This document shows positions 3,920 through 64,000 of a stretch of DNA of 64,000 nt, piece by piece; position 1 is the first letter of the stretch; every line of letters starts with the position of its first letter. The notes under the pieces were generated by a model. It ran no database searches and had not been told where the DNA came from. It saw only the letters and a list, made by a program, of their open reading frames with translations. Both the position numbers and the translations under genes were made by a program. The stretch comes from Anaerolineales bacterium (GTDB taxonomy: Bacteria; Chloroflexota; Anaerolineae; Anaerolineales; UBA6663), in assembly GCA_020845955.1 (NCBI GenBank), contig JADLEU010000364.1:11958-75957 (forward strand). Reading direction: 5' to 3'.

Positions 3920-4957
3920 GTGCGTAAGGCTGCCCAGATCTTATTGGGCCTGGCCATCAGCCTGTTGGCTCTGGCGCTGGCGTTCCGCGGCGCAGACACG
4001 GCGCTCGTGGCCGCGGCGCTGCGCGGAGCCAACTACCTGTATCTCGTCCCAGGGATCGGCCTGATTTGGCTGGGCTTGTATCTACGCGCGCTAAGCTGGC
4101 GTGCCATTCTGGGCCATCAGGTCACGTACCGGCGCGTCTATGACGCGATGAATGAGGGGTACCTGCTCAATAACCTGCTGCCGTTCCGCCTGGGCGAGTT
4201 CGGCCGCGCCTACCTGATCAGCCGGGGCAGCTCGATCCCGGCCTACCAGGCGCTCTCTTCTGTGGTGGTCGAGCGCGTCATTGACTTGATCATGGCCGTG
4301 GTTCTGCTGCTGGCGTTTCTGCCGTATGTGATCGGCTTGGACCTGGCGCGGAGCGCCGCCCTGTCGTCGGTGCTGCTCGGCGTGGCAGCCCTGGCGGGCC
4401 TTGTCGTCACTGCCCGCCAGCAGGCGCGCGTCGTGCGCCTGGCCCGGGCGGTGCTCGAACGGCTGCCTGGGCTGCATGCCCAGCGCTGGGCGGCGCGGTT
4501 GGAAGCGGCCCTGGCCGGCCTCTCGGTCTTTCAAGACCCGCGCCGCGCGCTGGCAGCCGGCGGGTGGTCCTTCCTGGCCTGGGTAGCGGCTGGCCTGGGC
4601 GCCTGGTTCACGCTGTTGGCGTTTCTGCCGGGCGCGACCCCGGTGATGGGGTTTGTGGTGCTGACGGTGGTGGCCCTGGCGGCCGCGGTGCCGTCGCTGC
4701 CCGGCTCGGCCGGCGTGTTTGAGTTGACGATCGTGACGGTCCTGGCCGTCTTTGGGATCGACAACAACCGCGCCCTGAGTTTTGGCCTGATCTTCCATGC
4801 GCAGCAGATTGTCCTGACCATGATCTTGGGCGGACTGGCCCTGGCGCGGGAAGGCGAGACGCTGGCCCACCTGGCGCGCTCGGCCCGAGCCTTCGTGCGC
4901 CCGGCCCGGCCAAACGGCAGCGCGTTGGCGCCTAAGCCGCTCTCTTCCGATCAATGA
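3920..4957 (+). CDS. Lysylphosphatidylglycerol synthase TM-domain / flippase-like membrane protein (UPF0104)
   Basis: Multiple TM helices; NNLLPFRLGEFGR, VVVERVIDL and PSLPGSAGVFE motifs. Confidence 0.88.
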   Translation: MRKAAQILLGLAISLLALALAFRGADTALVAAALRGANYLYLVPGIGLIWLGLYLRALSWRAILGHQVTYRRVYDAMNEGYLLNNLLPFRLGEFGRAYLISRGSSIPAYQALSSVVVERVIDLIMAVVLLLAFLPYVIGLDLARSAALSSVLLGVAALAGLVVTARQQARVVRLARAVLERLPGLHAQRWAARLEAALAGLSVFQDPRRALAAGGWSFLAWVAAGLGAWFTLLAFLPGATPVMGFVVLTVVALAAAVPSLPGSAGVFELTIVTVLAVFGIDNNRALSFGLIFHAQQIVLTMILGGLALAREGETLAHLARSARAFVRPARPNGSALAPKPLSSDQ

Positions 4958-6114
4958 AAGTCCTGGTCTCGCTGACGTACTACCGCCCGCACGTCTCGGG
5001 CCTGACGATCTACGCCGAGCGCCTGTCGCGCGCGCTGGCCGCTCGCGGCCATGCCGTCACCGTGCTGACCTCGCAATACGATCGCGCCCTGCCGCGGCGC
5101 GAGTGCCTGCACGGGGTCGACATCATCCGCGTCCCGGTCCTGATGCGCGTCAGCAAGGGCGTGATCATGCCCACGATCGGCTGGGAGGCTACGCGCCTGG
5201 TCCCGGCCCACGATGTGCTCAGCCTGCACCTGCCGCAGTTGGACGCGACCGGGCTGGCGGTGCGCGGCCGGCTGTTCCGGCGCCCGGTGGTGGTCACCTA
5301 CCATTCGGACCTGATCCTGCCGCGCTCGCCCATCAACTGGCTGGCCCAAACCGTCTCAGACCTGGGCAACGACGCGGTGGCGCGCCTGGCCGACCGGCTG
5401 GTGGCCTACACCGACGACTTTGCCCGGCACTCGCGCTACCTGTCGAAGCATCTCGACAAGGTGACGGTCATACCCCCGCCGGTGGAGATGCCGACCCCAA
5501 GCCTCGAGGCCATTCAGGCGTTTCGCGAGCGCCACCATCTCAATGGCTCAGGGCCGGTGATCGGCCTAGCCGTGCGGCTGGCGGCGGAGAAGGGGGTTGA
5601 ATACCTGCTGGAGGCGCTGCCGCGCATCCTGGAGCGCTATCCGCGGGCGCGCGTTCTGCACGCCGGGCCGCGCGAGGCGATTGGCGAGGCCGCTTACCTG
5701 CAGAAGCTGGAGCAATTGATCGACGGCTATCGCGACCGCTACACGTTTGTGGGCACGCTGGATGCCGAACAAATGGCGGTGTTCTTCAGCAATTGCGACG
5801 TGCACGTGCTGCCCAGCATCAACAACACCGAGACCTTTGGCCTGGTGCAGATCGAGGCGGCCCTGAGCGGGACGCCCACCGTGGCCAGCGCGCTGCCCGG
5901 CGTGCGGATGCCGACGCGGATGACGGGCATGGGCCTCAGCGTGCCGCCGCGCGATCCAGCGGCGCTGGCGGAGGCCATCCTCGACGTGCTGGCCCGCCGT
6001 GGCCACTACGTGCGGCCGCGCGGTCCCATCGCGGCGCAGTTTGCGCCGGCAGCCACGGCCGCGCAGTACGAGCAGATCTTCACGGAGTTGCTGGCGGCCA
6101 GGCGCAAGGCCTAG
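4954..6114 (+). CDS. Glycosyltransferase family 4 (GT-B)
   Basis: YYRPHVSG N-terminus; RLAAEKGVEYLL; ETFGLVQIEA (EX7E) motif. Confidence 0.92.
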   Translation: MKVLVSLTYYRPHVSGLTIYAERLSRALAARGHAVTVLTSQYDRALPRRECLHGVDIIRVPVLMRVSKGVIMPTIGWEATRLVPAHDVLSLHLPQLDATGLAVRGRLFRRPVVVTYHSDLILPRSPINWLAQTVSDLGNDAVARLADRLVAYTDDFARHSRYLSKHLDKVTVIPPPVEMPTPSLEAIQAFRERHHLNGSGPVIGLAVRLAAEKGVEYLLEALPRILERYPRARVLHAGPREAIGEAAYLQKLEQLIDGYRDRYTFVGTLDAEQMAVFFSNCDVHVLPSINNTETFGLVQIEAALSGTPTVASALPGVRMPTRMTGMGLSVPPRDPAALAEAILDVLARRGHYVRPRGPIAAQFAPAATAAQYEQIFTELLAARRKA

Positions 6115-9376: not shown

Positions 9377-12300
9377 ATGACCGGATCTGATCCCACGCTC
9401 GGCGAACAAGCCGACAACCTGGCAGGCAACGGCGCCGACACGGGCGCGGCGATTGGGCCGCGCGCCGTTGTCTCGCCGCTGCCAGCTGGCAGCGGGGCCG
9501 AAGCCGCTGCCCCGCCGCTTCCGGCCGAGCCCGCCTCGGAACCGGCCGCCCGGCGGCCACTTGGGATCAAGCGCTCACGGCTCTTGGGCCTGGCGTTCGA
9601 CGCCGTCCTGATCCTGCTGATCGGCGCCGGCGTCGTCTTCCGCTTCAGTTGGGTCAACTGGAATGAAGACGCCGATCTGCACCCTGACGAATACGGGCTG
9701 ACGGGCACGCTGACGCAGCTAGCCATTCCCGCTACCCTGGGTGAGTACTTTAATACCCGCATTTCGCCGCTGAGTCCTTACCAGAAGTACGACGTGGACG
9801 GCACGCCGCTGCCGCCGAGCGCGGAGCATCGCATGCCCGACAACCGCATGCGCTGGGGCCAATGGCCACTGACGATCATCCGCTGGATGGCCGAGGCGAC
9901 TGGCAACACCGGCTACGGTGAGCTGCGCCTGATGGGCCGGCGCCTATCGGCCCTGGCCGATACGCTGGCGCTCGGCGTGATCTTCCTGATCGGTTGGCGG
10001 CTGCACAGCCGCCGCGTGGGCCTGATGGCGGCGGCACTCAGCGCGCTGTCGGTGATGCAGATCCAGCAGGCGCACTTCATGACGGCCGACAACTTCGGCA
10101 CGCTGTTCACCGCCCTGGCGATGTATGCGGCGGTTCGGGTGGCAACCGGGCCAGGGCCGGCCGCGGCGACAGACGATCGACGACCCTCGACGGACCCGGG
10201 CACGGCGCGGCCGGCGGCCGGCCGCCCGCCGGCGCTGGTCTGGTATGGGCTCTTCGGCCTGTTCTTTGGCCTGGCGCTGGCGTCGCGCATCAACCTGGCG
10301 CCGCTGGCGGCCGAAATCGTGGTTGCCGCGGTGATTGCCTATGCCGTCGATTGGCAGCGCGGCGCGCGTGACCGCGGCGGGCTGCTGAGTGAGGCGGCCC
10401 TGCGGCTGGGGTTGGCCGGCCTGGTGGCCGTGTTCACGTTCCGCGTGGCCCAACCCATGAGCTTTCGGGCCGAGACCGGTGACACGACCCTGCTGACCCT
10501 GAATCCCAATCCCGAATGGCTGGCGAGCATGGCGGTGGCTCAGGCCGAGTCCAGCGGGGAGGGTGGCGGCCCGCCTGGGGAGCAGTGGACGGACCGGCCG
10601 GCTCTAGTGTTTCCCTTCGTCAACATGGTGGTCTGGGGCATGGGCTTGCCGCTGGGGCTGATGGCCTGGGCGGGGCTGCTGTGGGCGGCCTGGCGCAGCT
10701 TCCAGCCCGCCGACGAGGTATCCTGGAAACTGCACGCTCTCCCGCTGACCTGGGCTGGCGGCTATTTCCTGTTCATGGGCACGCGCTGGGTCAAATCCAT
10801 TCGCTATTTCCTGCCCATCTATCCCTTCATGGCCCTGTTGGCCGCCTGGGCCATCGTGGCGCTGTGGAAGCTCGGCCGCGCTGATCACGCGGCGCGGCAA
10901 GCGGCGAGGAGCCAAGGGGATCGGGGGCCACAAGGGCGGGCCGCCGAGGGGGCCGCCTTTGACCAGCGCACGAGTCCCTCGCGCCGCCCCAGCCCCTGGT
11001 ATCGGCGGGCCGCTGTCCTGTTGGGCGCGCTCGTCCTCGGCGGAACCCTCGTCTGGGCCTGGGGCTTCACCAGCATCTACCGCAACACCAACACGCGGGT
11101 CACGGCAACGCGCTGGGTGTTTCAAAACGTCCCGGCGCCGTTGAACCTCCAGATCCAGACGATGGACGGCCTGCGCTCCGAGCCGCTCTCCGTGCCAGAC
11201 GGGCTGACCGTTGGCGCTGAAACGCCTTACCGGCTGCAATTTTCCGCTCCGGTGACCGGCACGCTCACGGGCATTTCGGCCGCCTACGCCAGCACGCTCT
11301 TTGGCCCTGGCGCCACCGCCAGCCTGCAGGTCGTGCTGGCGGGCGACCCGGAAGGCCAACAGCCGCTGGCGGCGGCCGAGCTTGTGGCTGCGCGGCCGGG
11401 CAGCGACCCGCGCGGCGCGCCGGCCGCGGCCGCTCTGGGCCCGGCGACGCTGGTGAACGGGCAGACCTATTACCTGCTCCTGCGGGCCACGACCGGCGCC
11501 GCGGTGCAGTTTCAGTCGACCGTCCTTGCTCACGAGGAGTGGGATGAAGCCCTGCCCATTCGCATGGATGGGCGCGATCCCTTTGGGGGGATGTACCGCG
11601 GCCTGTCGATGCTGGTGCGAGGCGTCGACGATGAGAACAAACGGCAGATGTTCATCAGCAATCTGGCGCAGGCCGACCTCGTCATCCTGCCCAGCCAGCG
11701 CGGCTTGTGGAGCGCCTCGCGGCTGCCCAACCGCTATCCGCTGACTCTGGAGTATTACCGCGCGCTGTTCGACGGCCGCCTGGGCTTCGAGCTCGCCGCG
11801 CAATTCCAGTCGCCCATCCGGCTCGGCCCGCTGCAGATCTCCTCCGAAGCCGGCACCTGGGCTTGGGGCCACGCCCCGCCCAACCCGCCGCCGGCCTGGT
11901 ACCCCTTCAACGACAACCCCCTGGCAGCCGAGGAGGCCTTCAGCGTCTACGACCACGCGCCTGTCTGGATCTTCAAGAAGCGCGCCGATTTCAGCCTGGC
12001 TCGGGTGGAGGCGGTGCTCAACGCGGTCGACCTCAGCACCGTGGTCAACCAGGGGCCGCGGGAGGCCACCCGGACACCCACGCTCTTCCGGCTGCCGCCC
12101 GACCGCCTGGCCGAGCTGCGCGCGGGCGGCACGTGGAGCGCGATGTTCGATTTCGACGGGCTGCTCAACCGCCACGAGTGGCTGGGCGTCCTGGTCTGGT
12201 ACCTGGCCGTGCTTCTGATGGGCTGGGCGGCCTTCCCGCTGGCCTTTGTCGCCTTCTCGGGCTTGCCCGACCGCGGCTATCCGTTGGCCAAAACGTTCGC

Positions 12301-46847: not shown

Positions 46848-47900
46848 ATGGATACCGCCTCTCTGCCTGATGCCTCCCGAGCTGGCGCCGGGGCACCCGC
46901 CGGCCCGACAGCGCCGGCGCACTTCGGCGATCCAGCCGCCGAATATGCGGCGGCCCAGCGCGGGGTCGTGGCCGTGTGGCGTTCGCTCGAAGGGCGCCTG
47001 CGCGCGGTGGGCCGCGACCGGCTGGATTTGCTCCACCGCATGTCGACCAACGACCTGGTGAGCCTGGCCGTAGGCCAGGCTCGCATGACGGTGCTGACCA
47101 CGCCGATCGGCCGCATCGTTGACGTTTTGTGGGTGCTCAATCGCGGCGAGACGGTGCTGGCGCTTACCGGGCCAGGCCGAGCCACTCTCGTTCGGCGGTG
47201 GTTGTCGAGCTACATCTTCTACAACGACCAAGTCAAGTTTGAAGACGCCACCCGTGAGCTCGGGCAGATCGGTCTGTTTGGACCCGGGGCGGCCGGCGTG
47301 GCTCAGGCGCTGCAACCGGGTGCGGCCAGCCTGCCGGAGGACCACTTTGACGACGACGCTGGCCTGGTGGTGGCCCGCGGCCGCCCGCTGGCCGGCGATG
47401 GCTTCACGCTCATCGGGCCAGCCGCGCAATTGCCAGATGTCTGGAGTCAGGCGCTCTCGGCCGGGGCGGTGCCAGCGGGTGAGACAGCGTATCAATGGCT
47501 GCGGTTGAAAGCCGGCGTGCCGGAGGGCGGCGGTGAAGGGGACCAGGCCGGCCAGGAACTGACTGAGGCGTATATTCCGCTGGAAGCGAACCTGTGGCAC
47601 GCCGTCAGCTTCACAAAGGGCTGCTACATCGGCCAGGAAATCATTGCCCGCATGGAAAGCCGCGGCAAATTGGCCCGGCGGCTGGTGGGGCTTCGCCTGG
47701 AAGCGCCCACGTCCGTTGGGGCTGACGTGCACCTGGCAGGGGGCGGGCCAGCCACCGGGCACGTCACCAGCGCTGGCGTGCTGCCAGACTGCGGGCCAGT
47801 GGCGCTGGCCTATCTGAAGGCCACCGCTGCCGAGGCGGGCACGCTGATCAGGGTGGGCGAGGCAGCCGGCGAAGTCGTCGAACTGCCCTTCCGGCCCTAG
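46848..47900 (+). CDS. YgfZ/GcvT-like folate-binding protein
   Basis: DLLHRMSTND, KGCYIGQEIIARM signature. Confidence 0.9.
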   Translation: MDTASLPDASRAGAGAPAGPTAPAHFGDPAAEYAAAQRGVVAVWRSLEGRLRAVGRDRLDLLHRMSTNDLVSLAVGQARMTVLTTPIGRIVDVLWVLNRGETVLALTGPGRATLVRRWLSSYIFYNDQVKFEDATRELGQIGLFGPGAAGVAQALQPGAASLPEDHFDDDAGLVVARGRPLAGDGFTLIGPAAQLPDVWSQALSAGAVPAGETAYQWLRLKAGVPEGGGEGDQAGQELTEAYIPLEANLWHAVSFTKGCYIGQEIIARMESRGKLARRLVGLRLEAPTSVGADVHLAGGGPATGHVTSAGVLPDCGPVALAYLKATAAEAGTLIRVGEAAGEVVELPFRP

Positions 47901-48113: not shown

Positions 48114-49556
48114 CTATGACCGCCCGACGGTGTGCAGCAGGATGAAGTTGGCGGGCACGAACCGCGAAGGCGGCAGCCCGGCGATGACGATCACCTGCTG
48201 CCCCGCCCTGACCGGCGAATCGTAGAGCATGCCGGCCTCCACATGGGCCAACATGGCCTCGACGGTGTCGGCCTGTGGAATCAGATAGGCGGTGACACCC
48301 CAGAGCAGCGGCAGGCGCTGGTAAGTCTTGGGGTTGGGCGTGAACGCCAGGATCGGAACGTGAGGGCGCGCTTTGGACATAATGCGGGCGTTGCGGCCCG
48401 TCAGAGTGAAGATGGCAATGGCCGTGACATCGCGGTCGTGGGCCAGTTCGCGGGCAGCGCGCGCCAGGGCCACCGAGTCGTCGGAGGTGGACTCGGTGAC
48501 GCCGTGCCAACGGCCCCACTCCTCGCTGTGGGCTTCGGCCTCCTTGGTGATCGCAGCCATCATCCGCACCGATTCAATCGGATACTCGCCGGTCGCGGTT
48601 TCGCCCGACAGCATGACGGCGTCGCTGCCGTCGTAGATTGCGTTGGCGACGTCGGAGGCTTCCGCCCGGGTCGGGAGCGGGTTGGCAATCATGGACTCCA
48701 GCATCTGCGTAGCAGTGATGACGATCTTGCGCTGCCGGTTGGCGGCCTCGATGATGCGCTTCTGAGCTGTCGGGACTTCCTGCGGCGACAGTTCCACGCC
48801 CAGGTCGCCGCGCGCGACCATCACGCCGTCGGCCACCTGGAGAATGGCCTCCAGGTTTTCCAGGGCGGCCGGCTTCTCGAGCTTGGCGATCACGGGCAGC
48901 TTGGCCGCGTTGGGGTCAATCTCGGCCATGACGCGCTTGACGGCCGCCACGTCCTCCGGCCGGCGAACAAAACTGATGGCGACATAGTCGACGCCCTGAT
49001 TAAGGCCAAACTCCAGATCCTCGCGGTCTTTCTCGGTCAGGCTGGGGATGTTGACCATGACGCCTGGCAGGTTGATGCCCTTATGCTCCTTGAGCAGCCC
49101 GCCATGCACGACGCGCGTATGCACATCTCTGGCCTCCACGCGTTCGACCTGGAGCTCCAGGCGGCCGTCGTCGAGCAGCAAGCGGTCGCCGCGCTGCACA
49201 TCACCCGGCAGACCGCCGTAGGTTGTGGAGACCTCTGCCGCGCTGCCTTCGATGTCGCGGGTCGTGATGGTGAACGGCGCCTGGTCCTTGAGCAGCACCG
49301 CTTCGCCGCCCAGCAGCGTTCCGGTGCGGATTTTGGGGCCTTGCAGATCCTGGAGAATGGCGACGGGCTTGGAGAGGCGGCGCGAAATGCGGCGCACGGC
49401 GGCGATATTAGCGGCGTGCTCAGCGTGGGTGCCGTGCGAGAAGTTCAGGCGGGCGACGTTCATTCCGGCAGCGACGAGCGCGGCCAGCGTGTCTTCCGAG
49501 TTCGTCGCGGGCCCCAGGGTACAAACGATTTTGGTGCGGCGGAGATGGCCGTCCAC
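48114..49556 (-). CDS. pyk: Pyruvate kinase
   Basis: TKIVCTLGPA, RLNFSHG, DLQGPKIR, IAKLEK, MVARGDLGVE, ATQMLESM, MLSGETA; GTG 49556 with GAGG RBS. Confidence 0.97.
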   Translation of the reverse strand: MDGHLRRTKIVCTLGPATNSEDTLAALVAAGMNVARLNFSHGTHAEHAANIAAVRRISRRLSKPVAILQDLQGPKIRTGTLLGGEAVLLKDQAPFTITTRDIEGSAAEVSTTYGGLPGDVQRGDRLLLDDGRLELQVERVEARDVHTRVVHGGLLKEHKGINLPGVMVNIPSLTEKDREDLEFGLNQGVDYVAISFVRRPEDVAAVKRVMAEIDPNAAKLPVIAKLEKPAALENLEAILQVADGVMVARGDLGVELSPQEVPTAQKRIIEAANRQRKIVITATQMLESMIANPLPTRAEASDVANAIYDGSDAVMLSGETATGEYPIESVRMMAAITKEAEAHSEEWGRWHGVTESTSDDSVALARAARELAHDRDVTAIAIFTLTGRNARIMSKARPHVPILAFTPNPKTYQRLPLLWGVTAYLIPQADTVEAMLAHVEAGMLYDSPVRAGQQVIVIAGLPPSRFVPANFILLHTVGRS

Positions 49557-49601
49557 GTATAACCTCAAGACTGCAGGCACAATTTGGAGCTGGATTGCGG
49601 A

Positions 49602-49653: not shown

Positions 49654-50679
49654 CTATTCGCCCATGCGCCGATCATCGGATGGGGCTGCCGGGGGCAGCG
49701 CCACGGCCGGCGGCGCCAGAGGTTTTGAACGCCGCGACGATCGACCGCTGACGAGCAGCGTCCAGGTCCGATGGGCTAGCCCGCTGCCCAGGCTTTTTTC
49801 GCGCGTTACCAGCAGAACCGAGGCGGCCAGCAGCCCGGCGCCCAGCCACTGGCTTGCGCTGAGGGTTTCACCCAGCCACAACAAGGCCGCGACCACGGTG
49901 ACGAGGAGCTCGCTCAGCCCAATCAAGGCCGTCTGAACCCCACCCAGGCGCTTGACCCCAGTGAAGAGCGATACGCGCGACACCAGGGTGACGAGGGTGA
50001 GGAGCAGCACGGCCTGCCAGGCGGCGGTGCTGGGCGGACTGGCAGGCACCCCGGCCAGGCTGTAGCCGATGGATACGGCGATGGCCATCCCGGTGAGGTT
50101 GTACAGCGCCACGGTTGGCGCCGGGACATCAAATAGAACCCGCTGGCTGATAACAAGGTGGAACGCATACAGCATACCCGCGCCCAGCATCAGCGCGGCG
50201 CCCAGCCGATCGGGCGCGGTCTGGCCGTGGCGGGTGAGCAGGTAGACGGCCGCCAGCGCCAGCAGCATGCGCAGGGTGGTGAAGGTTGAGATCCTCTGGC
50301 CGTCGAGGCGCGAGAACAGGGTCAGAAAAACGGGGTAAAGCGCATAGAGCAGCTGCGCCAGCGAAGCGTCGAGACGGCCCAATCCAGTGTAGTACATCAA
50401 CGATCCCAGGCCGTTGACGATACCTGCCGCCAGGCAGCCGAGCAAGCCAACCGGGTAGATGTAGACGTGGCGACGGCCGAGGAGTAGGAAGAGCGCCCAC
50501 AGGCTGACCATGGCGAACACCGTGCGCAGCGTGACCACCGCCAGAGGCGGCGCGCCGGCCAGCATGGCCTGTTTGCCGAAGATGGGCGCCAGGCCCAAGG
50601 TCCCGGCCGACAGCAGCGCCGCGAAGACTCCCTGCGCCTGATCCTGGTTCCAGCGGCGGGGCCTGAGGTGGGCGAACAT
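49654..50679 (-). CDS. EamA/DMT family transporter
   Basis: Ten TM segments in two repeats; ASLAQLLYALYP, SELLVTVVAALLWLGE. Confidence 0.88.
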   Translation of the reverse strand: MFAHLRPRRWNQDQAQGVFAALLSAGTLGLAPIFGKQAMLAGAPPLAVVTLRTVFAMVSLWALFLLLGRRHVYIYPVGLLGCLAAGIVNGLGSLMYYTGLGRLDASLAQLLYALYPVFLTLFSRLDGQRISTFTTLRMLLALAAVYLLTRHGQTAPDRLGAALMLGAGMLYAFHLVISQRVLFDVPAPTVALYNLTGMAIAVSIGYSLAGVPASPPSTAAWQAVLLLTLVTLVSRVSLFTGVKRLGGVQTALIGLSELLVTVVAALLWLGETLSASQWLGAGLLAASVLLVTREKSLGSGLAHRTWTLLVSGRSSRRSKPLAPPAVALPPAAPSDDRRMGE

Positions 50680-50726: not shown

Positions 50727-52436
50727 TCAGGTCAGGGCGCCGAGCACATCCGCCAACAGGTCATCATCCATAAACGAACCCTTCTGCAGGAGCGAATCGA
50801 TCTGTCCATTCAGCCGATGGCGCTCGTCCGGTGCCAGCTCCTTGGCCGTGACCACAATTACGGGGAGGTCGCGCGTCGCGCTGTCGGCTCGCAGCGCGTC
50901 GAGCACGGCAAAGCCGTCCATATCCGGCATCATAAGATCGAGCACAACCAGGTCGGGATGGATCTCGCGGATCAAGCGCAGACCGTCGCGGCCATTGCCG
51001 GCCTCGGAGAGCTGGTAGGCACCCCTGGCCTGCAGGATACGGCGGATCAGGCGGGTGGCCTCCGGGTTGTCATCGATGATGACCACCGAGCGAACCCGCT
51101 CGTCCAGGCGCTGGAGGGCGGCTAGCAGGCCCTCTCTTGGGCGGGCCGCCATCTCCCGCGCGGCCCCGGCGCCTGGCTCGGCCTCGTGCGCGGGCAGCTC
51201 CACGTCGCGCGCCCAGCCCTCGCCGAGGATTTCGTTCTGGATCGGGAAGGTATGGCCGCTGCAGTTGACGACCACTACCTCGTCGGGCCGAATCAGCCCT
51301 GCGCGCACGAGCTTGATCAGCCCGGCGAAGGCCACGGCGGCGGCCGGCTCCATCGACAGGCCTTCCAGTTTGGCTAGGACGTGCAAGGCGCGATAGGCCT
51401 CCTCGTCGCTGACGCTCAGCATGGTCCCGCCATGGGTGCGGATATGATCGCGCAGCATCTGATAGCCGCGGCCCGGGTTGCCGGTCGCGAGCGTCGCAAT
51501 GTGCGTGCGCGGGCTGTGGACGACGTCGGGCGCCGCGCGGTTCTGCGCGAAGGCCGTCACCATGGGGGCGCAGCCTTCGGCCTGGATGCAGGCCAGCGCC
51601 GGCAGCTTGTCGACCAGGCCCATGGACTTGAGCTCAACGAAGCCCTTCATGACACCCGCCGGCCCGAGGCCGCCGCTGACCGACTGAACGTACCAATCGG
51701 GGGCCCGCCAGGGTGGCGGGCCGGCCGCGCCGTTCGAGGGCACGCCCAGCGCGCGAGCCAACTCTTCGGCCAACTCGAAGGCAATGGTCTTCATGCTCTC
51801 GACCGCGGCGATGCTGCGCAGGCCGCGGTCGTAGTACATGCCGCGCTGAGTGGCAAACTGCGCGGCCAATTCCTTGGCGCGGTCATAGGTCGAGGCGACT
51901 TTGATGACCTGGGCCCCGTAAAGGGCGCATTCGCGCATCTTTTCGGCCGGCACGAGCGAGGTCAGAAAGGCGTAGAGCTTGATGCCGGCCCGGGCGCAAT
52001 ACGCGGCGTAAGAAATGGCCACGTTGCCAGTGGAGGCCACCACCGCCTGCGTCAGGTTGTTCTCTTTCATCACCGACACGGCCAGGGCGGCCTGCCGGTC
52101 TTTGAACGAGCCGGTTGGACCCTGGCGCTCGTCCTTGACGAACAGGTTGGGGCGCCCCAGCATCAGGCCCAGGCTGGCGGCGCGCACCAGCGGCGTGCCG
52201 CCTTCGCCCAACGTGACGATATTATCGGGGTCGTTCAGCGGCAGCAGTTCACGAAAGCGCCAGAGGCTGTGGCGGCGCTGAACCGCCTGGCGGATGAGTT
52301 GCGGCCCCAGACTGGCGTAGTCATAGCGCGCTGACAGCCACTCGCCGCTGCAATGGGGGCACTGAAAGGCAGTCGACGGCAAGGCCGCCGAGCTCTGGCC
52401 GCAGTCGGCGCAGACTAAGGCGAAGTTCCCAGGCAT
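50727..52436 (-). CDS. Threonine synthase-like fold-type II PLP enzyme fused to a C-terminal receiver (REC) domain
   Basis: CxxC..CxxC N-terminus, LGEGGTPL, GSFKDR (Lys at 52101-03), ASTGN, EGLSMEPAAA; then IIDDNP, VLDLMMPDMDG (Asp at 50937-39), VVTAKE, LQKG. Confidence 0.9.
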   Translation of the reverse strand: MPGNFALVCADCGQSSAALPSTAFQCPHCSGEWLSARYDYASLGPQLIRQAVQRRHSLWRFRELLPLNDPDNIVTLGEGGTPLVRAASLGLMLGRPNLFVKDERQGPTGSFKDRQAALAVSVMKENNLTQAVVASTGNVAISYAAYCARAGIKLYAFLTSLVPAEKMRECALYGAQVIKVASTYDRAKELAAQFATQRGMYYDRGLRSIAAVESMKTIAFELAEELARALGVPSNGAAGPPPWRAPDWYVQSVSGGLGPAGVMKGFVELKSMGLVDKLPALACIQAEGCAPMVTAFAQNRAAPDVVHSPRTHIATLATGNPGRGYQMLRDHIRTHGGTMLSVSDEEAYRALHVLAKLEGLSMEPAAAVAFAGLIKLVRAGLIRPDEVVVVNCSGHTFPIQNEILGEGWARDVELPAHEAEPGAGAAREMAARPREGLLAALQRLDERVRSVVIIDDNPEATRLIRRILQARGAYQLSEAGNGRDGLRLIREIHPDLVVLDLMMPDMDGFAVLDALRADSATRDLPVIVVTAKELAPDERHRLNGQIDSLLQKGSFMDDDLLADVLGALT

Positions 52437-52446
52437 GCGGAGTCGA

Positions 52447-56451
<4,005 letters not shown>

Positions 56452-57195
56452 ACACGCTCAATTCATCAGCCAGCGCGCGGTATTGCTGCGCCGCGCGGCT
56501 GCTGGGCGCATAGCTCGTGATCGGCTGGCCAAAGACCTGGCTTTCGCGGAGCTTGGGGTCAATGTCGATGGTGGTATCCAGGACGGCTGCCCCAAAGGCG
56601 CCGCGCAACTGGTCGAGGATGCCGCGATGGACGCGGTTGCCGCGGTCGAACATGGTGACGACGATGCGGTAGCTGAGCTGCGGGTTCGTTCGGGCCCGCA
56701 CGCGGCGGACCAGGTCCAGCACTTCGCCCAGGCCATGGGTTGAGAAATACTCGCATTGGGTGGGGATGAGGAGCATGTTGGCCGCCGTCAGGGCTGTATA
56801 GGGGATAGCGCCGGTCGACGGTGGGCAATCGACGAGCACGATTTCAAAGGTGTGGGCGGCGGCCAGGGCGCTGCGCAGCGTATACTCGTAATCCTGGCGC
56901 ACGGTCAAGAAGCGCTCCACTAGGTGCATAGCAGAGTTGGCCGGCAGCACATCGAGGCCGGCGATGGCGGTGGCGCGGCTGACGCTGACGGCACTGAGGT
57001 TGCCCAGGAGCACGTCGGCGGCGCCACGGCGCAGGCCGTTGACCGGCAGGCCGAGGGCGAGGCTGAGGTTGGCCTGCGGGTCCAGGTCCACGGCTAGCAC
57101 CTCGAAGCCGCGCTCGACCATGGCCGCCCCCAACGACACGCAAGTCGTGGTCTTGGCCACGCCCCCCTTCTGGTTGCTGACGGCGATCACGGTCC

Positions 57196-60100
57196 TCACG
57201 GGCCGTTATCCCCGCGGGCGGTTTCGCCTCCGCCAGCGCCATTGGACGGGTGGGCGCCGTTGCCGGCCGCCGAACCCGGCTCGGCCCCCGTGAGCGGGCG
57301 CAGCCCGCCGGTTCCGCGCCGCCGCTGGGGGGCGCGGAACCCGCCGCTGGGCAAATCCAAACGGACCGCCACCCGCGTGACGCCAAGCGCCTGGCGAAGC
57401 TCGGACACCGCGGTGCGCAGCATCCCGTCCATGTCTTCCGCTGCCCGGATTTTGCTGGTAATTTCGACCACCAGGCGCTCCCGGCGGGCTTGGCGCGCGG
57501 TCTGGTTGAACAAGCGCGCGTTCTGCAGGGCCACGGCCAACTGGTCGGCGATGGCGACCAAGATGGCGACGTCTTCGGGGCCAAACGCGTGGGGCGCGGT
57601 GCTTTGCACGTCGAGGGCGCCCACGATGGAAGCGCCGCTGAGCAGCGGCACCACCGCTTCCGCGCGCGTTTCCGGCAGCAGCGGGTTCTTGAGGTGGTTT
57701 GGATCGGTGGTCACGTCCTGCGCCACGACCGGCTGCTGGGTGGCCGTGGCCAATCCGACCAGCGACCGCGACCCCACGGCCAAGGCGTGCTGGCGGGCCT
57801 TGAGGATCGCGCCGGCGTCGCCGGTGGATTCGCGCAGGACAGCCGCCTGGCCGTCCGGATCGATCATGAAGACGGAGGCGTGATAGTAGCCAAAGCGCTC
57901 GCGGATCAGGTTAACGGTCGTGCGCAGCAGCTCGTCGCGGTCCAGCGAGGCGGTCATGGCCCGGGCCACGTCAGCCGCGGCGGCCAGCAGTTGGGCTCGG
58001 CGCTGCGCGGTTGCCTGCGCGGCCTTGAGCGCTGCCTCGGCCTGTTTGTGGGCAGTGACGTCGAACAGCATGCCGCGGATCGTCAGTGGACGGCCAGATC
58101 CTTGGGCGAAGGCCTGCGACTGGTTGTGGAACCAGATGACGCGCCCATCGCGGGTGAGCGAGCGATACTCGATATCGAGCGCGGCGCCGAGGGCGTTCTG
58201 GCGCGCCACTTCCTTGAGCACCCCCGCGCGGTCGTCGGGGTGCAGCAGCTTGACCCACAGCTCGGGATCCGCCAGCCACTCCTCGGGCGTATAACCCAGC
58301 AGCGGCTGTACTTGCGGGCTGATGTAGGTAGTCTGCCGCAAGGCCCCGCCGGCGAGCGCTTCCGCGGCGTAGATGATGGCCGGCAGCTGCTCCACCAGCG
58401 AGCGATAGCGCTCTTCGGCCGCCCGCAGCTGCTCGTTGGCCGCTTTGCGCTCGGTGATGTCCTCCGATATCCCGACCATGAACTTCGGCTGGCCGCTCTC
58501 GTCCAGGATCGGGATTTTGCGCGTGTGCAGCCAGCGGGTGCCGCGCCCGCGGGTCTGGATCGGCTCTTCGGCGATCTCGATCATGCGCCGGGCCTCGAGG
58601 ACCTCGCGGTCCTTGCTGAAGAAGTGATGGGCCTCCTCGACCGGGAAGACGTCCGAATCGCTCTTGCCGAGCATTTCCTCGCGCGACAGGCCGACCAGGC
58701 TCTCGGCCGCGCGGTTCCAGCGCACGAAGCGCAAGTCCTGAGCGTCTTTCACAAACAGCATCGAGGGCAGATTCTCGATGATCGAATCGAGGAAGCTCTG
58801 CGCCTGCTGGGTGGCAGCCAGCAGCTGCGCGTTGCGCAGGGCGACAGCGAGCTGGTCCGCCATCGTCTGCAGCACGGCCACGTCGGCTTGGCCGAAGGCG
58901 CCCGCCAGGGTCGACTGGACGTCCAGCGCGCCCAGCACGTGGCCGCCAACGACCAGCGGCAGGGCGATCTCGGAGCGCGTATCGGGGAGGAGCGGGTTGG
59001 CGAAGCGGACCGGCTCGGCGCCCACATCCAGCGCAATGCGCGCGCGCCGGTTGGCCGTGGCCCAGCCGACCATCGAGTTGCCGCCCACCTCCAGCTTGTG
59101 CCCGCGTTCGAGCAGCGCTCGGCCGGCCTCGCCGGTGGCGTGGCGCAGCTCCGCCCAGGCGCCGCTGTCGTCGACGAGGAACAAGGCCGCGTATTGCACG
59201 CCCGCGCTGCGCGCGAAGCGCTCACGGATCAGCTCGACCGATTGGATGATCAAGTCGTCGGGGTTCAGGACCGAGATGGCGGTGCGGCTGACGTCGGCCG
59301 CAGTAGCCAGTTGCTCGGCTCGGCGCTGGGTCTCCGCGAACAGCCGCGCGTTCTGCAGCGCTGCGACCATCTGGTAGGCCACCGCGTTGAGCGCGGTCAC
59401 TTCGCGCTGGCCGTACTGGTTGTACTGGTAGCTCTGCACGGAGAGTACGCCGCCCACCTCGGCGCCGAAGTACAGCGGCAGGAAGAGCAGCGAGGCCGAG
59501 ACCTTGCTGGCATCGCCGATCGCCCGATCGGGCGAAAGCTCGCGCTGGGCGACTTCCGCGGGTGTGCGGTTGATGACGACTGTCTCGCCGGTGTGCAGCA
59601 CGCGCTCAATCATGCCGCCCGGCGCGGGCAGGCGCGGCCCCTCGGCGTAGCGCTGGCCGCTATCGTAGATGAGGGGCGTGTTCTGCAGGCCCGTGCTGCG
59701 GTCGTAAAGCGTGACAAAGAATGCGTCCAGTGGGGTCAGCCGCTGCAGGTGCTGGTAGACGGTTTCCAAGACCTGTACCGGCTCCAGCGTCTGCGACACG
59801 GCGCGGGCGAAGTCGTTGAGCACGGCCAGCTCGGACGCGCGCTTTTCGGTCTGCTGGAAGAGCCGAGCGTTCTGCAGCGCCACGCCGACTGTAGCGGCCA
59901 CGGTGGTGAGCAGGCGCGCGTCGGCTTCGCTGAAGGCGCCTTCCTGGTCCAGATCCTGGACGCTGATGGCGCCCAAGACCTCGTCGCCGGCCAGGACCGG
60001 CACGGCCAGGAACGAGCGCGCCGGGCGTCCTGAGACGCGGGCGCCAAGCTCAGCCACACGCTGCTCGACGTCGCGGACGAGCAGCAGCGGCTGCCGGGTC

Positions 60101-62388
60101 TGAATGACGATCGACGTCAGGCCCTGCCCAAGCGGGAACGGATCGACCTGGATGCGCTGGCCGCCATCGACCATGTAGGGCATCGAGATCATGTTGGTGG
60201 CGCGGTCGTACAGGGCCAGGAAGGCGTTGTCGCGCCGGAAGACCTCGCGCAGCTTGTCGACCACGAGCTCAGTGAGCGCGCTCAAGTCCAGGCGCCCCGA
60301 CAGCGCCTGGCTGATGTCGTTCAGAATGACCAGCTCCGATAAGCGCTGCTGCGTCTCCGCCAACAGGCGGGCGTTTTCGAGGGTAGCGGCGGCCTGGGCG
60401 GCGTACAGCAGCGCGATCTGCTCGTCGTCGGCCGTGAAGGCCCGGCCTGGGGCCGAGTGCGTGAGCACCAGCACCCCAAGCCCTTGACCTTGCCAGGTCA
60501 TGGGGACGGCCAGGGCGGCCTGGACCGGCGCGCCGGCCGTGCCCTCGCGCGCCTGAGACCAGTCCGCCAGCTCACCAGCCCGCAAGGGCTGGCCGGCGCG
60601 GATGACCTGCCCGGCCAGGCCCTCGCCGTGCTTGAGGCGCTGTCCGACTGATGCCGGCGGCCCGAGGCCAACGCTAGCGCGCAATTCAATCTCGTCTGGG
60701 CTGCCGAGCAGCCAGACTGCAGCGCCATCCGCCCCGAACAGCCGCTGCGCTCCACGGCAGATCTGGTCGAGCGCCTGCTGCGGGCTGAACTGGGGACCGG
60801 TCAGCTCGAGCGCGCTTTCCGACAGGCTGGCGAGCTGCTGCGCGCGGAGGCGCGTTTGCTCGAAGAGCTGGGCGCTTTCCAGGGCCAGCGCCATGCGGTC
60901 GGCAACCGCCGCGACCAAGTCCAGGTCCTCACCCGTCCAGGCCTCGCCCTCGCGTTTCAGCTCGAGCACGCCCAGTTGCTGGGCGCCGAAGCGCAGCGGC
61001 ACCTGGATCGCGCTGCTGGTTGACGTGCCGGCGCTCGGCGAGGCCGCCGGCTCGGCTTCGGACAGGGGGCGCACGTCGATGCCGTCGTAGCGGAAGGCGG
61101 CCGCGCCCGCCGGGCCGCCCCAGCCCGCGGCTTGGCGGGTGGCCTGCTGCAGGATCTGAAGCTCGGCTAGCCGGCGCTCGGTTTCCTGCAGCAGGCGCGC
61201 GTTGTCCAGCGCCAGGCCCAACTGGTCAGCCAGGCTTTGCAGCACCTCGACGTCTTCCGCGCTAAAGGCATCGCTGTCGACGGACTGCACGTCCAGGGCG
61301 CCCAGGAGGACGCCGCGCGCGCGCAGCGGCACGGCCGCTTCCGAGCGCGTGTCGGCCAGGTCGGGGTTGACGAAGTGCAGCGTGTCGGCGCTGACCTGGC
61401 GCGCCACACGGGACTGTCCCGTGCTGGTGACGTGCCCGACGATGCCCTCCTGGCCTACCCGCAGGCGGTGGCTGCGCGCCAGCAGGCGCTGGCCGCCGGG
61501 GCTGTTTGTGGCGCTGAGAATCGCCCATTCGCGGGCATCATCCAGGAGGAACAGGCCGGTGTGGTAGTAGCCAAAGCGCTCGCTGATCCAGTTGACACTC
61601 GTCTGGAGGAGCTCATCGACGCTGTGCGTGGCAGCGGCAGCGCGGGCCACCTCGGCGCTGAGCGCCAGCAAGGCCGCGCGGCGTTCAAGCGCCCTGGCCT
61701 GGACTTCCTGCTCGCGGCGCGCGGCCTCGGCCTCGCGCCCGGTGGCTTCCAGCGCGGCCGATTCCAGTGCCAGCCGGGCCTGCGCGGCCTCCAGGATCGC
61801 CTTGTCCTGCGCAGCCGCGGCGGCGAACCGCCGGGTGGCAAGAAACTGGCGCTGCGGGATGATCAAGCCGACCATGACCAGCAGCAGGCTCATGGCGCCC
61901 GCCAGCCAATTGGCGAACGAGGCGGGGTCGTTGGGGGCGCCGACCAGCAGGCCGGTGCTGAAGCCGGCCGCGGTCGCCAGCCAGGCGGCTAGGGCCAGCG
62001 CCGCCGCCGTGATGCCGGCCCGCGTGCCGAACACCGCGGTGGCAATCACCGCGAAGGCCGCCAGATAGAGGCGCCCGGCGCCAGACAGACCAAGGGTCAC
62101 CAGGCTGATCACCGCCACGGCCAGCAGCAGCGCCAGGAAGACGCCAGCGCGCCAGGCGAAGGGCAAGCGCCGCCCAAGCGCCAGCCCAGCCAGAACGAGG
62201 AACATGACGCCATAGAGCGCGTTCGCGATCCAATCGGGATTGGCGAGCGAGGACAGAATATTAGCGACGAGTGCCAGCAGCGCCACGCCGAGGGTGCCGC
62301 GGACGATCTGATGCAGGGCCTCTTCGCGAGTGGCCAGCAGCGCGTCCGTTTGGGCGGCGGCGCCCGGCGGGGCCAACCAGCGCCTCAC
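57196..62388 (-). CDS. 1730-aa membrane sensor: about 5-6 N-terminal TM, six GAF, one mini-GAF, two PAS, no catalytic output domain
   Basis: Repeated ...QLAVALxNARL GAF ends, RFGYYH GAF subfamily, two PAS/PAC (DITERK, DVTAHK); ends in a GAF N-terminal fragment. Confidence 0.9.
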   Translation of the reverse strand: MRRWLAPPGAAAQTDALLATREEALHQIVRGTLGVALLALVANILSSLANPDWIANALYGVMFLVLAGLALGRRLPFAWRAGVFLALLLAVAVISLVTLGLSGAGRLYLAAFAVIATAVFGTRAGITAAALALAAWLATAAGFSTGLLVGAPNDPASFANWLAGAMSLLLVMVGLIIPQRQFLATRRFAAAAAQDKAILEAAQARLALESAALEATGREAEAARREQEVQARALERRAALLALSAEVARAAAATHSVDELLQTSVNWISERFGYYHTGLFLLDDAREWAILSATNSPGGQRLLARSHRLRVGQEGIVGHVTSTGQSRVARQVSADTLHFVNPDLADTRSEAAVPLRARGVLLGALDVQSVDSDAFSAEDVEVLQSLADQLGLALDNARLLQETERRLAELQILQQATRQAAGWGGPAGAAAFRYDGIDVRPLSEAEPAASPSAGTSTSSAIQVPLRFGAQQLGVLELKREGEAWTGEDLDLVAAVADRMALALESAQLFEQTRLRAQQLASLSESALELTGPQFSPQQALDQICRGAQRLFGADGAAVWLLGSPDEIELRASVGLGPPASVGQRLKHGEGLAGQVIRAGQPLRAGELADWSQAREGTAGAPVQAALAVPMTWQGQGLGVLVLTHSAPGRAFTADDEQIALLYAAQAAATLENARLLAETQQRLSELVILNDISQALSGRLDLSALTELVVDKLREVFRRDNAFLALYDRATNMISMPYMVDGGQRIQVDPFPLGQGLTSIVIQTRQPLLLVRDVEQRVAELGARVSGRPARSFLAVPVLAGDEVLGAISVQDLDQEGAFSEADARLLTTVAATVGVALQNARLFQQTEKRASELAVLNDFARAVSQTLEPVQVLETVYQHLQRLTPLDAFFVTLYDRSTGLQNTPLIYDSGQRYAEGPRLPAPGGMIERVLHTGETVVINRTPAEVAQRELSPDRAIGDASKVSASLLFLPLYFGAEVGGVLSVQSYQYNQYGQREVTALNAVAYQMVAALQNARLFAETQRRAEQLATAADVSRTAISVLNPDDLIIQSVELIRERFARSAGVQYAALFLVDDSGAWAELRHATGEAGRALLERGHKLEVGGNSMVGWATANRRARIALDVGAEPVRFANPLLPDTRSEIALPLVVGGHVLGALDVQSTLAGAFGQADVAVLQTMADQLAVALRNAQLLAATQQAQSFLDSIIENLPSMLFVKDAQDLRFVRWNRAAESLVGLSREEMLGKSDSDVFPVEEAHHFFSKDREVLEARRMIEIAEEPIQTRGRGTRWLHTRKIPILDESGQPKFMVGISEDITERKAANEQLRAAEERYRSLVEQLPAIIYAAEALAGGALRQTTYISPQVQPLLGYTPEEWLADPELWVKLLHPDDRAGVLKEVARQNALGAALDIEYRSLTRDGRVIWFHNQSQAFAQGSGRPLTIRGMLFDVTAHKQAEAALKAAQATAQRRAQLLAAAADVARAMTASLDRDELLRTTVNLIRERFGYYHASVFMIDPDGQAAVLRESTGDAGAILKARQHALAVGSRSLVGLATATQQPVVAQDVTTDPNHLKNPLLPETRAEAVVPLLSGASIVGALDVQSTAPHAFGPEDVAILVAIADQLAVALQNARLFNQTARQARRERLVVEITSKIRAAEDMDGMLRTAVSELRQALGVTRVAVRLDLPSGGFRAPQRRRGTGGLRPLTGAEPGSAAGNGAHPSNGAGGGETARGDNGP

Positions 62389-64000
62389 CGGCCGGCCTCC
62401 GGCTGGCCGGGCGCGTCCGCGCCGGCCAGCCGCACCACGACTTCGGTGGCGCCCAGCGCGCGGCCCAACTCACGCATGCCGCTCTGGACCACCGCGGAAG
62501 GATTGAGCGTGGCGCGCAGCTGGTAAGTGATGTCGTTGATGAGCTGTTCGCTCAGCCGGCGGCGCTGAGTTTCTTCGAGCAGGGCGGCGTTCTCCAGGGC
62601 GGCGGCGAGCTGGGCCGAAATCGTGCCGAGGGCCGCCTGCTCTTCCGCCGTCCACTCGTTGGGGCGCCGCCCATGCAGTTCGATAGCCCCGACGACTCGG
62701 TCGCGCAGCCGCAGCTCGATCTGGAGCGGCTCGGCGCTGGCGCTGCTCAGGGTCGCGTCGCCGGGAACCGCTTCGAACACGCTCTCCCGGCTTTGGCCGC
62801 GCAGCAGGCCGCGCCAGCTGTTGCCGGCCAGGCGCTGGTAGAGACGGCTCACTTCGTCCAGGCTCGCCTGGGTCTGCTGGAACAGCTCGGCATTTTCGAT
62901 GGCGACGCTGAGTTGGTCGGCCAGTGTCTGCAGGACCTGAATGCTGCTAGGGTCAAAGGCGTTGGGTTCGCGACTCTGCACGTCGACGGCGCCGAGCAGC
63001 CGGTCACCGGAAATCAGCGGGATGGCCAGCTCGGAGCGCGTCTCGGGCAGGAGCGGGTTCTTGAAGTAGAACGGGTCCTCGGCGACGTCGAGCGCGACGC
63101 GCGGCTGGCGCTGGCTGGTGACCCAGCCAATCAGAGACTGCGAGCCCACCGCCAGGCGGTGGGCGCGCGCCTTGAGCTGCGCGCCCACCGGGCCGGTGGA
63201 TTCGCGCAGCACCGCGTACTGCCCGGGCGCATCCAGCAGGAAGATCGAGGCGTGGTAGAAGCCGAAGCGGTCGCGGATCAGGTTCAGCGCCAGCCGCAGC
63301 AGGTCATCCAGGTTGCGCAGCGAGGCGGTCGCCCGGCTGATGTCGGCCGCGGCCTGGAGTTGGGCGGTGCGGTCGCTGACGCGCTGTTCGAGCGAGGTGA
63401 CGAGCTCGTTGAGGCGGGCGGTCATGCCATTGAAGGCTTGGGCCAGCAGGCCGATCTCGTCGCGGCTGTCGACCTCGGCCTGCACGGTCAGGTCGCCGCC
63501 AGCGACCTGACCGGCGGTGGCGGTCAGGCGCCCAATGGGGTCGGCCAGGACCTGTGCGGCAGCCACCGCCACGGCGGTGACGATCAGGGCAATGATGGCT
63601 GCCAGGGTGACGGTGGCCTGGGTCTGCTGCTGGACGGGCGCCAGGAATACGGCCGTAGGCTGAAAAAAGGCCACCTGCCAGGGAAAGCTGGCCAGGGTGA
63701 TGACGGCCGCCTGGCTCTGGCGGCCGCCGGCCGCCGCGTCGACGGCGGTGAAAAAGGGCTGGGCGCCGGCCTGGGACAGGCTGCCGGCCAGCTGCGGCAT
63801 CTGAGCTGAATAGGCGAAATCAGGCCGGCTAGGCAGCCGAGACTGGGCCTGGAGGCGGCTGATTTCGCCCGCCGTGGCCGGTCCGACTAGCCGATAGAGC
63901 GCGGTTGGATCGGCGCCGTGCGCCACAACCATCAGGTTCTCGTCAAAGACGGCGCCAAACGAATCCGGCCCGGCCAGCCCCTGGGTCTGTTCGACGATGC
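62385..64000 (-). CDS. Membrane sensor (extracellular/Cache-like, TM, HAMP, GAF, mini-GAF), 5'-truncated by the window; no output domain
   Basis: Frame is open from 63998; TM, then PIGRL..DEIGLLAQAFNGM HAMP; RFGFYH GAF; same C-terminal fragment as the downstream gene. Confidence 0.88.
   Translation of the reverse strand, partial: IVEQTQGLAGPDSFGAVFDENLMVVAHGADPTALYRLVGPATAGEISRLQAQSRLPSRPDFAYSAQMPQLAGSLSQAGAQPFFTAVDAAAGGRQSQAAVITLASFPWQVAFFQPTAVFLAPVQQQTQATVTLAAIIALIVTAVAVAAAQVLADPIGRLTATAGQVAGGDLTVQAEVDSRDEIGLLAQAFNGMTARLNELVTSLEQRVSDRTAQLQAAADISRATASLRNLDDLLRLALNLIRDRFGFYHASIFLLDAPGQYAVLRESTGPVGAQLKARAHRLAVGSQSLIGWVTSQRQPRVALDVAEDPFYFKNPLLPETRSELAIPLISGDRLLGAVDVQSREPNAFDPSSIQVLQTLADQLSVAIENAELFQQTQASLDEVSRLYQRLAGNSWRGLLRGQSRESVFEAVPGDATLSSASAEPLQIELRLRDRVVGAIELHGRRPNEWTAEEQAALGTISAQLAAALENAALLEETQRRRLSEQLINDITYQLRATLNPSAVVQSGMRELGRALGATEVVVRLAGADAPGQPEAGR

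Follow-up and report, generated by a model that had tools for sequence, protein, structure and literature searches.

A receiver-fused threonine synthase-like enzyme of Chloroflexota, probably switched by a two-component signal

To our knowledge, almost all characterised response regulators act in transcription, second-messenger turnover or chemotaxis, or are protein phosphatases. Those with an enzyme as output, such as CheB, PleD and WspR, the HD-GYP protein RpfG and the PP2C-type phosphatases, join an intact N-terminal receiver to a catalytic domain and are encoded next to a kinase. Here we describe a comparable combination in a 64,000-nucleotide stretch of DNA (hereafter the window) from an Anaerolineales bacterium of the Chloroflexota (GenBank assembly GCA_020845955.1, contig JADLEU010000364.1, forward-strand positions 11,958 to 75,957). 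One of its genes, also adjacent to a kinase gene, encodes a pyridoxal phosphate (PLP) enzyme resembling threonine synthase (ThrC), fused to an intact receiver domain (REC). The likely logic is the same, direct post-translational control of catalysis, but in this protein the receiver is C-terminal, and the output is a PLP amino-acid enzyme with chemistry like that of primary metabolism rather than second-messenger turnover or protein modification. We found no description of a receiver-fused ThrC-like or other PLP enzyme in the searchable full-text literature, and the family appears to be unstudied. Its members would be response regulators of the enzyme-output kind, in which the output domain is new and the receiver stands at the C terminus.

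On the enzyme side, the closest described systems are the threonine synthases (EC 4.2.3.1; class-I structures 1UIM/1V7C from T. thermophilus, 2ZSJ, 2D1F and 6CGQ), with which the fused protein shares the fold, the PLP-binding Lys of a GSFKDR motif, the S-T-G-N loop and the domain order. Its N-terminal Cys4 ribbon is common to ThrC-like proteins of the PRK08197 type. It differs from ThrC in carrying a C-terminal receiver, in reading FKDRQ for FKDRG and in not lying next to thrB. Cysteate synthase (CapA2 of Alistipes finegoldii) and the mammalian THNSL2 phospho-lyases are also ThrC-derived and have kept the fold while changing the reaction, which indicates that the ThrC scaffold readily evolves new beta/gamma chemistry; unlike cysteate synthase, the fused gene has no sulfonolipid or coenzyme M context. 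The GabR/MocR regulators likewise combine a PLP-enzyme fold with a regulatory module, but theirs is a fold-type I, aminotransferase-like domain joined to a winged helix-turn-helix DNA-binding domain, outside two-component signalling. In Microcystis, a divergent ThrC lineage acts both as threonine synthase and as threonine deaminase (PMC12172450); it has relaxed specificity, coexists with canonical ThrC and has extra N-terminal structure, without a receiver. We considered it as a member of the fused clade, but membership could not be established.

The fused gene and its parts are as follows.

50727..52436, (-) strand: ThrC-like PLP enzyme with receiver, 569 amino acids (zinc ribbon, PALP, linker, REC), from the open reading frame (ORF), Pfam, AlphaFold and Foldseek
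52350..52412, (-) strand: N-terminal Cys4 zinc ribbon (C9, C12, C26, C29); Cys present in 113–118 of 121 relatives
51258..52217, (-) strand: fold-type II PLP catalytic domain, amino acids 74–393 (Pfam PF00291, PALP)
52101-52103, (-) strand: codon of the PLP-binding Lys112, aligned to K61 of T. thermophilus ThrC
51087..51257, (-) strand: linker, amino acids 394–450, with a low-confidence stretch and then P433-x-E435-G436-x3-A440-L441 just before the receiver
50763..51086, (-) strand: receiver domain, amino acids 451–558 (Pfam PF00072, Response_reg)
50937-50939, (-) strand: codon of the phospho-acceptor Asp500

An earlier reading of this stretch from the sequence alone (the sequence-only reading) had proposed a PLP enzyme connected through a linker to an intact C-terminal receiver, and the architecture holds up. 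A single ORF matches PALP over amino acids 74–393 (215.2 bits, E 1.6e-63) and Response_reg over amino acids 451–558 (74.7 bits against a cut-off of 30.2, E 8.1e-21), identifying a receiver fold in which the residues of the phosphorylation site are all present (D455-D456, D500, T530 and K552). The motifs to which that reading had drawn attention occur in the translation as PTGSFKDRQA, ASTGNVAIS, YVQSVSGGLGP and VVNCSGHTF; the N-terminal zinc ribbon had gone unmentioned there. The Lys that it had assigned to PLP is K112, invariant in 121 of 121 relatives together with ~ 60 other PALP columns. The motif divergence that it had noted proves to be a set of clade signatures rather than chance variation, but one element was overstated: the SGGLGP loop is unlike GNAGN, its counterpart in short class-I ThrC, yet zinc-ribbon ThrC-like enzymes of the PRK08197 type have a similar loop, TGGGTGL, so that on its own it is less unusual than claimed.

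An AlphaFold model built on an alignment of relatives has a mean predicted local distance difference test score (pLDDT) of 86.1, with both domains confident. The receiver displays the (beta-alpha)5 pattern at amino acids 450–568 with pLDDT ~ 90, and pLDDT falls below 50 at amino acids 416–434 of the linker. The closest solved folds found by Foldseek are threonine synthases, with template modelling (TM) scores of 0.82–0.85 normalised to the target; 2ZSJ, 1UIM, 2D1F and 6CGQ match at 27–31% identity. Threonine/serine deaminase structures are weaker matches (TM ~ 0.77–0.82, E ~ 1e-16), and the cysteate synthase CapA2 (9K3C) is more distant than the ThrC structures (TM 0.72).

The fusion is widespread. 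A first homologue search returned > 120 protein clusters at 60–83% identity, all with PALP and REC, and most of the proteins found in a second search, from an unfused seed, were fused as well; they came from Anaerolineae, Aggregatilineales and other Chloroflexota. Together, the searches place PALP and REC in > 230 protein clusters at 48–83% identity. Full-length fused genes occur in ~ 40 of 401 evenly sampled Chloroflexota genomes, including 24 of 24 genomes of one family and 6 of 6 of a genus with 6-Mb genomes, and some genomes have two copies. The family is present in hundreds of Chloroflexota genomes. For comparison of gene contexts we assembled 159 independent loci, 79 from species genomes and 80 from metagenomes, and annotated them by phmmer with the window's own domains as single-sequence queries, so all neighbour and domain counts are lower bounds. 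Among the 151 complete genes at these loci, 148 have a receiver: 135 have one, 13 have two and three have none. One further protein, P0112, carries three. The fused gene is also found in the closed genomes G043 and G258 (one contig each) and G223 (three contigs), the last of which belongs to the genus with 6-Mb genomes and consists of three replicons, including a chromosome of 6,346,587 bp.

A maximum-likelihood tree was built from 69 PLP domains, comprising 50%-identity representatives, paralogues from the source genome itself and others. In it, the receiver-bearing proteins are all united in a single clade, with a Shimodaira–Hasegawa-like approximate likelihood ratio (SH-aLRT) support of 98. 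This clade is separate from the canonical, PRK08197 and other ThrC-like groups, and its history requires one gain of the receiver and one nested loss. The lineage of the loss (P0128 and relatives) is unfused and keeps the full catalytic motif set, from which we infer that the PLP domain can work alone. P0128, the closest unfused protein, was also the only cyanobacterial relative that we found: an unfused protein of 427 amino acids, encoded at 4309-5592 of locus L027 on a contig of a Pseudanabaena sp. metagenome-assembled genome, yet nested in the Chloroflexota fused clade. Either horizontal transfer with receiver loss or a mis-binned contig would account for it. Its neighbours are unrelated housekeeping genes (Dus, LptC and S6) and are uninformative as to function, and when the unfused sisters P0134, P0135 and P0138 served as seeds for a metagenome scan, it gave almost only fused genes.

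Conservation across 121 aligned relatives (48–83% identity) covers both halves of the protein. In the enzyme, K112, R114, Q115, S135-N138, E213, M215-T217, S254, G255, G258, P259 and H395 are invariant. In the receiver, E/D455, D456, D500, T/S530 and K552 are found in 100% of the 118–119 relatives that have one. This pattern indicates that both halves are under purifying selection. Immediately before the receiver, P433, E435, G436, A440 and L441 are each at least 90% conserved, which suggests that the linker is a functional coupling element.

What reaction might the enzyme catalyse? Relatives are named ‘threonine synthase’ or ‘pyridoxal-phosphate dependent enzyme’ in databases, but the fused protein scores below every curated ThrC cut-off (PRK08197, 250.9 against 303 bits; TIGR00260, 151.9 against 167.1; PRK05638, 195.3 against 421). 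It is not a member of the cysteate synthase family (TIGR03844, 105.8 bits against a cut-off of 324.9), nor of the threonine/serine ammonia-lyases IlvA, TdcB and EutB (≤ 67 bits against cut-offs of 331–496). An invariant Gln stands in place of the Gly of FKDRG. When the protein is aligned by profile with ThrC of T. thermophilus, the numbering K61, S84-T88, N154, S155, R160 and G187-N191 is reproduced, and K112 aligns with K61 of 1UIM, so that the ThrC-type fold is accompanied by the Schiff-base Lys. The ThrC residues T88, N154, S155, R160 and N188, which we take to be the ligands of the substrate or product phosphate and whose numbering and alignment were checked, align to V139, R204, G205, A211 and G256, and none of the five is retained. 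As ligands they were reportedly described by Omi et al. in 2003 and Murakawa et al. in 2011; we found no open paper that lists the phosphate ligands of ThrC or of cysteate synthase. R160 is the Arg of the ThrC NPxR(L/V)EGQKT motif. The substitutions are fixed across the subclade.

In ThrC, according to what Murakawa and colleagues reportedly showed in 2011, the retained phosphate directs the addition of water to give threonine rather than 2-oxobutyrate. Given this directing role, a remodelled pocket predicts a changed reaction specificity. The sequence-only reading had suggested a substrate or reaction beyond normal threonine synthesis, and its suggestion gains support from the alignments through the missed cut-offs, the separate clade and the five substituted ligand positions.

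The gene content of the source genome points the same way. This genome (100% complete, 431 contigs) holds five ThrC-like paralogues including the fused gene, the other four lying on contigs C425, C229, C369 and C226 (loci L001, L002, L003 and L005). The canonical thrC (301 bits to TIGR00260, L001) adjoins a homoserine-kinase-like gene, named from its translation and not from a family scan. A PRK08197-type paralogue scores 564 bits, and two further zinc-ribbon paralogues fail all curated cut-offs for their type; the one at L003 is also without the ThrC motif Arg (TVEGKKT). A separate canonical thrC, which the sequence-only reading had proposed to look for, is thus present next to the homoserine-kinase-like gene, the fused gene is not the only ThrC, and it sits in a signalling operon rather than in a threonine pathway context. 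Judged from this gene content, the fused enzyme is not the housekeeping threonine synthase. Among 40 fusion-bearing genomes, 33 have a strong canonical thrC. For the seven that do not, all five that were searched hold a strong PRK08197-type gene (548–584 bits), with G290 outside the search; in G386, the best ThrC-like match is a PRK08197-type gene adjoining the fused gene.

The signalling context is formed by the genes around the enzyme, all on the same strand.

62385..63932, (-) strand: HAMP-GAF receptor, 515 amino acids, no output domain; the first co-oriented gene of the cluster within the window (Pfam)
57196..62388, (-) strand: membrane receptor, 1730 amino acids, with MASE11, six GAF and two PAS domains and no output domain (Pfam)
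56417..57199, (-) strand: ParA/MinD-like ATPase (Pfam AAA_31, CbiA), with a 35-nt overlap with the kinase gene
52447..56451, (-) strand: soluble hybrid histidine kinase, 1334 amino acids, with PAS, four GAF, HisKA, HATPase_c and two REC domains and no Hpt (Pfam)
49654..50679, (-) strand: EamA-family (drug/metabolite, amino-acid-type) transporter (Pfam EamA, two repeats)

The kinase stop codon precedes the enzyme ATG by 10 nt, and the EamA gene begins 47 nt past the end of the enzyme gene. The EamA protein weakly matches TIGR00950 (carboxylate/amino acid/amine transporter). Pfam searches of the cluster proteins found no DNA-binding regulator in the cluster, and no promoter or terminator signal above chance level emerged when the operon was scanned. 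Both receptor genes are translationally coupled, by 4-nt overlaps, to the genes for the ParA-like ATPase and the soluble hybrid kinase.

Neighbours were counted at the loci with enough flanking DNA, and the kinase is the most constant of them. A histidine kinase gene lies directly upstream on the same strand at 101 of 119 loci (85%), and of these 101 kinases, 89 have detectable GAF domains and 72 are hybrid. An EamA transporter occurs within 3 kb downstream at 67 of 102 loci and a ParA homologue upstream at 37 of 105. Three layouts recur. In layout A (the window and L009), receptors are followed by ParA, hybrid kinase, enzyme-REC and EamA; in a variant at L010, no ParA was called and the receptor and kinase are seemingly one gene of 2090 amino acids. 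Layout B consists of hybrid kinase, enzyme-REC, a REC-histidine kinase (REC-HK) and EamA. Layout C has a non-hybrid kinase, an enzyme with one or two receivers, one or two stand-alone receivers and sometimes a PRK08197 ThrC; the closed G223 locus (L023, fused gene at 9992-11629), with a dCache-HAMP-GAF-PAS kinase, enzyme-REC and REC, is of this kind. The pairing of kinase and enzyme persists across GAF, TPR-GAF and dCache-HAMP-PAS kinases, and its survival despite full turnover of the sensory domains is as expected of a cognate kinase-regulator pair.

In a subgroup of loci (L121, 59-10501; also L122, L149 and L157), the enzyme-REC gene has no recognisable kinase nearby. It follows an IF-2B-family gene, which reads as methylthioribose-1-phosphate isomerase (MtnA)-like, and lies near a gene for an NMT1/SsuA-like solute-binding protein. 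These neighbours are too thin a basis for assigning a pathway. The neighbouring ribonucleotide reductase gene carries an intein and LAGLIDADG homing-endonuclease insertions.

In the reading that we favour, the adjacent kinase would phosphorylate Asp500 and thereby gate a ThrC-derived enzyme of altered specificity, whose amino-acid-like substrate or product passes through EamA; we put the probability of this reading at roughly one half. The target of the two-component signal would then probably be an amino-acid reaction itself and not a gene. In such a scheme, the GAF/PAS hybrid kinase probably integrates the signals of the upstream output-less GAF receptors and would transfer phosphate to the C-terminal receiver. 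The phosphorylated receiver would in turn alter the activity of the catalytic domain, most plausibly through a change in the dimer or in the open/closed movement on which ThrC-type enzymes depend. The catalytic domain is predicted to have arisen from zinc-ribbon threonine synthases and to be active with PLP, but with a remodelled phosphate pocket. Most likely it acts on a small amino acid, by a beta- or gamma-elimination or replacement that is akin to the ThrC reaction without being identical to it. This could be an elimination of the phospho-lyase or deaminase type, such as THNSL2 performs, or, as with cysteate synthase, the introduction of a different nucleophile. The compound made or consumed, presumably amino-acid-like, may be carried across the membrane by the EamA protein, whose gene is presumably co-transcribed.

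Several observations weigh against this reading. The low-confidence linker (amino acids 400–445) leaves the relative placement of PALP and REC unset in the AlphaFold model, which therefore offers no domain interface in support of gating. Extra receivers and REC-HK genes occur at many loci and the adjacent kinase itself has two receivers, so the fused receiver could be one node, or a sink, of a branched relay. About one locus in three, that of the closed 6.35-Mb genome among them, has no EamA gene. As to the chemistry, the ligand assignment is our assumption, and basic residues near the pocket are kept (R/K204 in 118 of 121 relatives and R/K207 in 120 of 121; other subclades, including the two-receiver one, have an R/K one position away). 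The site could thus still accommodate a phosphate ester, O-phosphohomoserine included, and the alignments indicate that the anion pocket is remodelled rather than abolished. The zinc-ribbon PRK08197 proteins are also without T88 and N188, and such zinc-ribbon relatives are seemingly the only threonine synthase in some genomes, so only part of the motif divergence is diagnostic. Finally, in G166 and G175 and in the genus of G386, the gene directly following a second fused copy encodes a PRK08197 ThrC. This adjacency could mean that the fused enzyme serves ordinary threonine metabolism, and is the only hint of that.

The extra receivers invite an alternative in which the PLP domain is a sensor and not an output. 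An amino acid bound as external aldimine would control phosphorylation or dephosphorylation of the receiver, so that the protein feeds metabolic information into the relay or drains it as a phosphate sink or connector, with the real output elsewhere. A branched relay is suggested by the genes directly downstream of the fused gene, which encode a REC-HK at 27 of 102 loci and a stand-alone receiver at 19 of 102, by upstream kinases with two receivers of their own at 72 of 119 loci, and by the family members with two receivers (13) or three (one). The fused receiver is a close paralogue of the kinase's own terminal receiver (48% identity, compared with 34% to the kinase's first), and GabR/MocR provide a precedent for a PLP fold serving as an effector-binding domain. 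However, the cluster holds no other output-domain protein from which a signal could issue, the frequent EamA gene suggests a metabolite that is made or consumed, and the unfused nested members and sister clades keep full catalytic motifs without a signalling partner, as fits an autonomous enzyme. We regard a sensory role as unlikely, although it is the main rival of the favoured reading.

Alternatively, the protein could be a genuine threonine synthase isozyme that converts O-phosphohomoserine to threonine under two-component control, for example to boost the supply or export of threonine. That the nearest sequences and folds are threonine synthases, after which relatives are named, is compatible with this, as is the divergent cyanobacterial ThrC that combines synthase and deaminase activities (PMC12172450). 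The EamA family includes the threonine/homoserine exporter RhtA. The gene order of G166, G175 and G386 offers a further argument. PRK08197 ThrC comes directly after fused enzyme-REC(-REC) genes on G386:C4 (L024, 2750-12299) and G166:C6 (L026, 6803-16690), and its flanking genes in G386 are two TPR-GAF histidine kinases. A presumed housekeeping ThrC may thus lie inside a signalling operon in genomes that have no TIGR00260-type thrC (G386 and G166). Against an isozyme stand the failure at all curated ThrC cut-offs, the separate clade, the substitution of all five phosphate-ligand positions with the motif Arg among them, and a genome already equipped with a canonical thrC and a PRK08197 copy. We find this alternative doubtful.

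A receiver that is degenerate or purely structural, for instance a dimerisation module that is never phosphorylated and leaves the enzyme constitutive, is very improbable. It would agree with the K-G that follows beta5 in place of the usual K-P and with the absence of an aromatic switch residue three positions before the Lys, but hardly with phosphorylation-site residues that are conserved without exception or with a kinase adjacent at 85% of loci. The receiver does look degenerate in the distant member P0126, a metagenome representative of 562 amino acids with 43% identity, which has no clear Lys and a changed setting of the acidic pocket, so decay of the phospho-switch is possible in one lineage or more. 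Of the checks bearing on whether the sequence-only reading would be undone, three went in its favour as far as sequence can show: the fused gene is not the only ThrC of its genome, the receiver is intact, with its phosphorylation residues fully conserved and a kinase upstream at 101 of 119 loci, and the fusion holds in independent contigs. That two genes were joined by an assembly or frameshift artefact, a doubt raised there, is practically excluded by the same uninterrupted ORF in 148 of 151 complete genes from independent assemblies and in the closed genomes G043, G258 and G223.

Further along the window, past EamA, are genes for a pyruvate kinase (48114-49580) and then a GcvT-like folate-binding protein (46848-47900). 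Pyruvate kinase is also found downstream of EamA at L009 and L010, where relatives have 66–77% identity, and is probably a matter of plain synteny and not of functional linkage.

If the receiver does gate a PLP amino-acid enzyme, the family would constitute a new output class of two-component systems, one in which sensing would act on metabolism or on the export of metabolites with no need for gene expression. The enzyme and the exporter are seemingly the sole outputs of very large multi-sensor operons. A more speculative extension, which we find doubtful, is that these operons are signal-controlled small-molecule factories, in which GAF/PAS sensors feed one kinase that sets the enzyme to make an exported non-proteinogenic amino acid or antimetabolite, used as a signal or weapon. 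The product could be a vinylglycine-like or a beta/gamma-substituted amino acid. If true, this would amount to amino-acid-based communication or allelopathy in filamentous Chloroflexota, wired through a two-component system with no transcription step. The family also amounts to a natural experiment in the change of reaction specificity on a threonine synthase scaffold and is directly testable, as the fused protein should be expressible in E. coli. It is abundant in Anaerolineae and related Chloroflexota, organisms that are common in wastewater sludge, sediments and soils and whose physiology is poorly understood.

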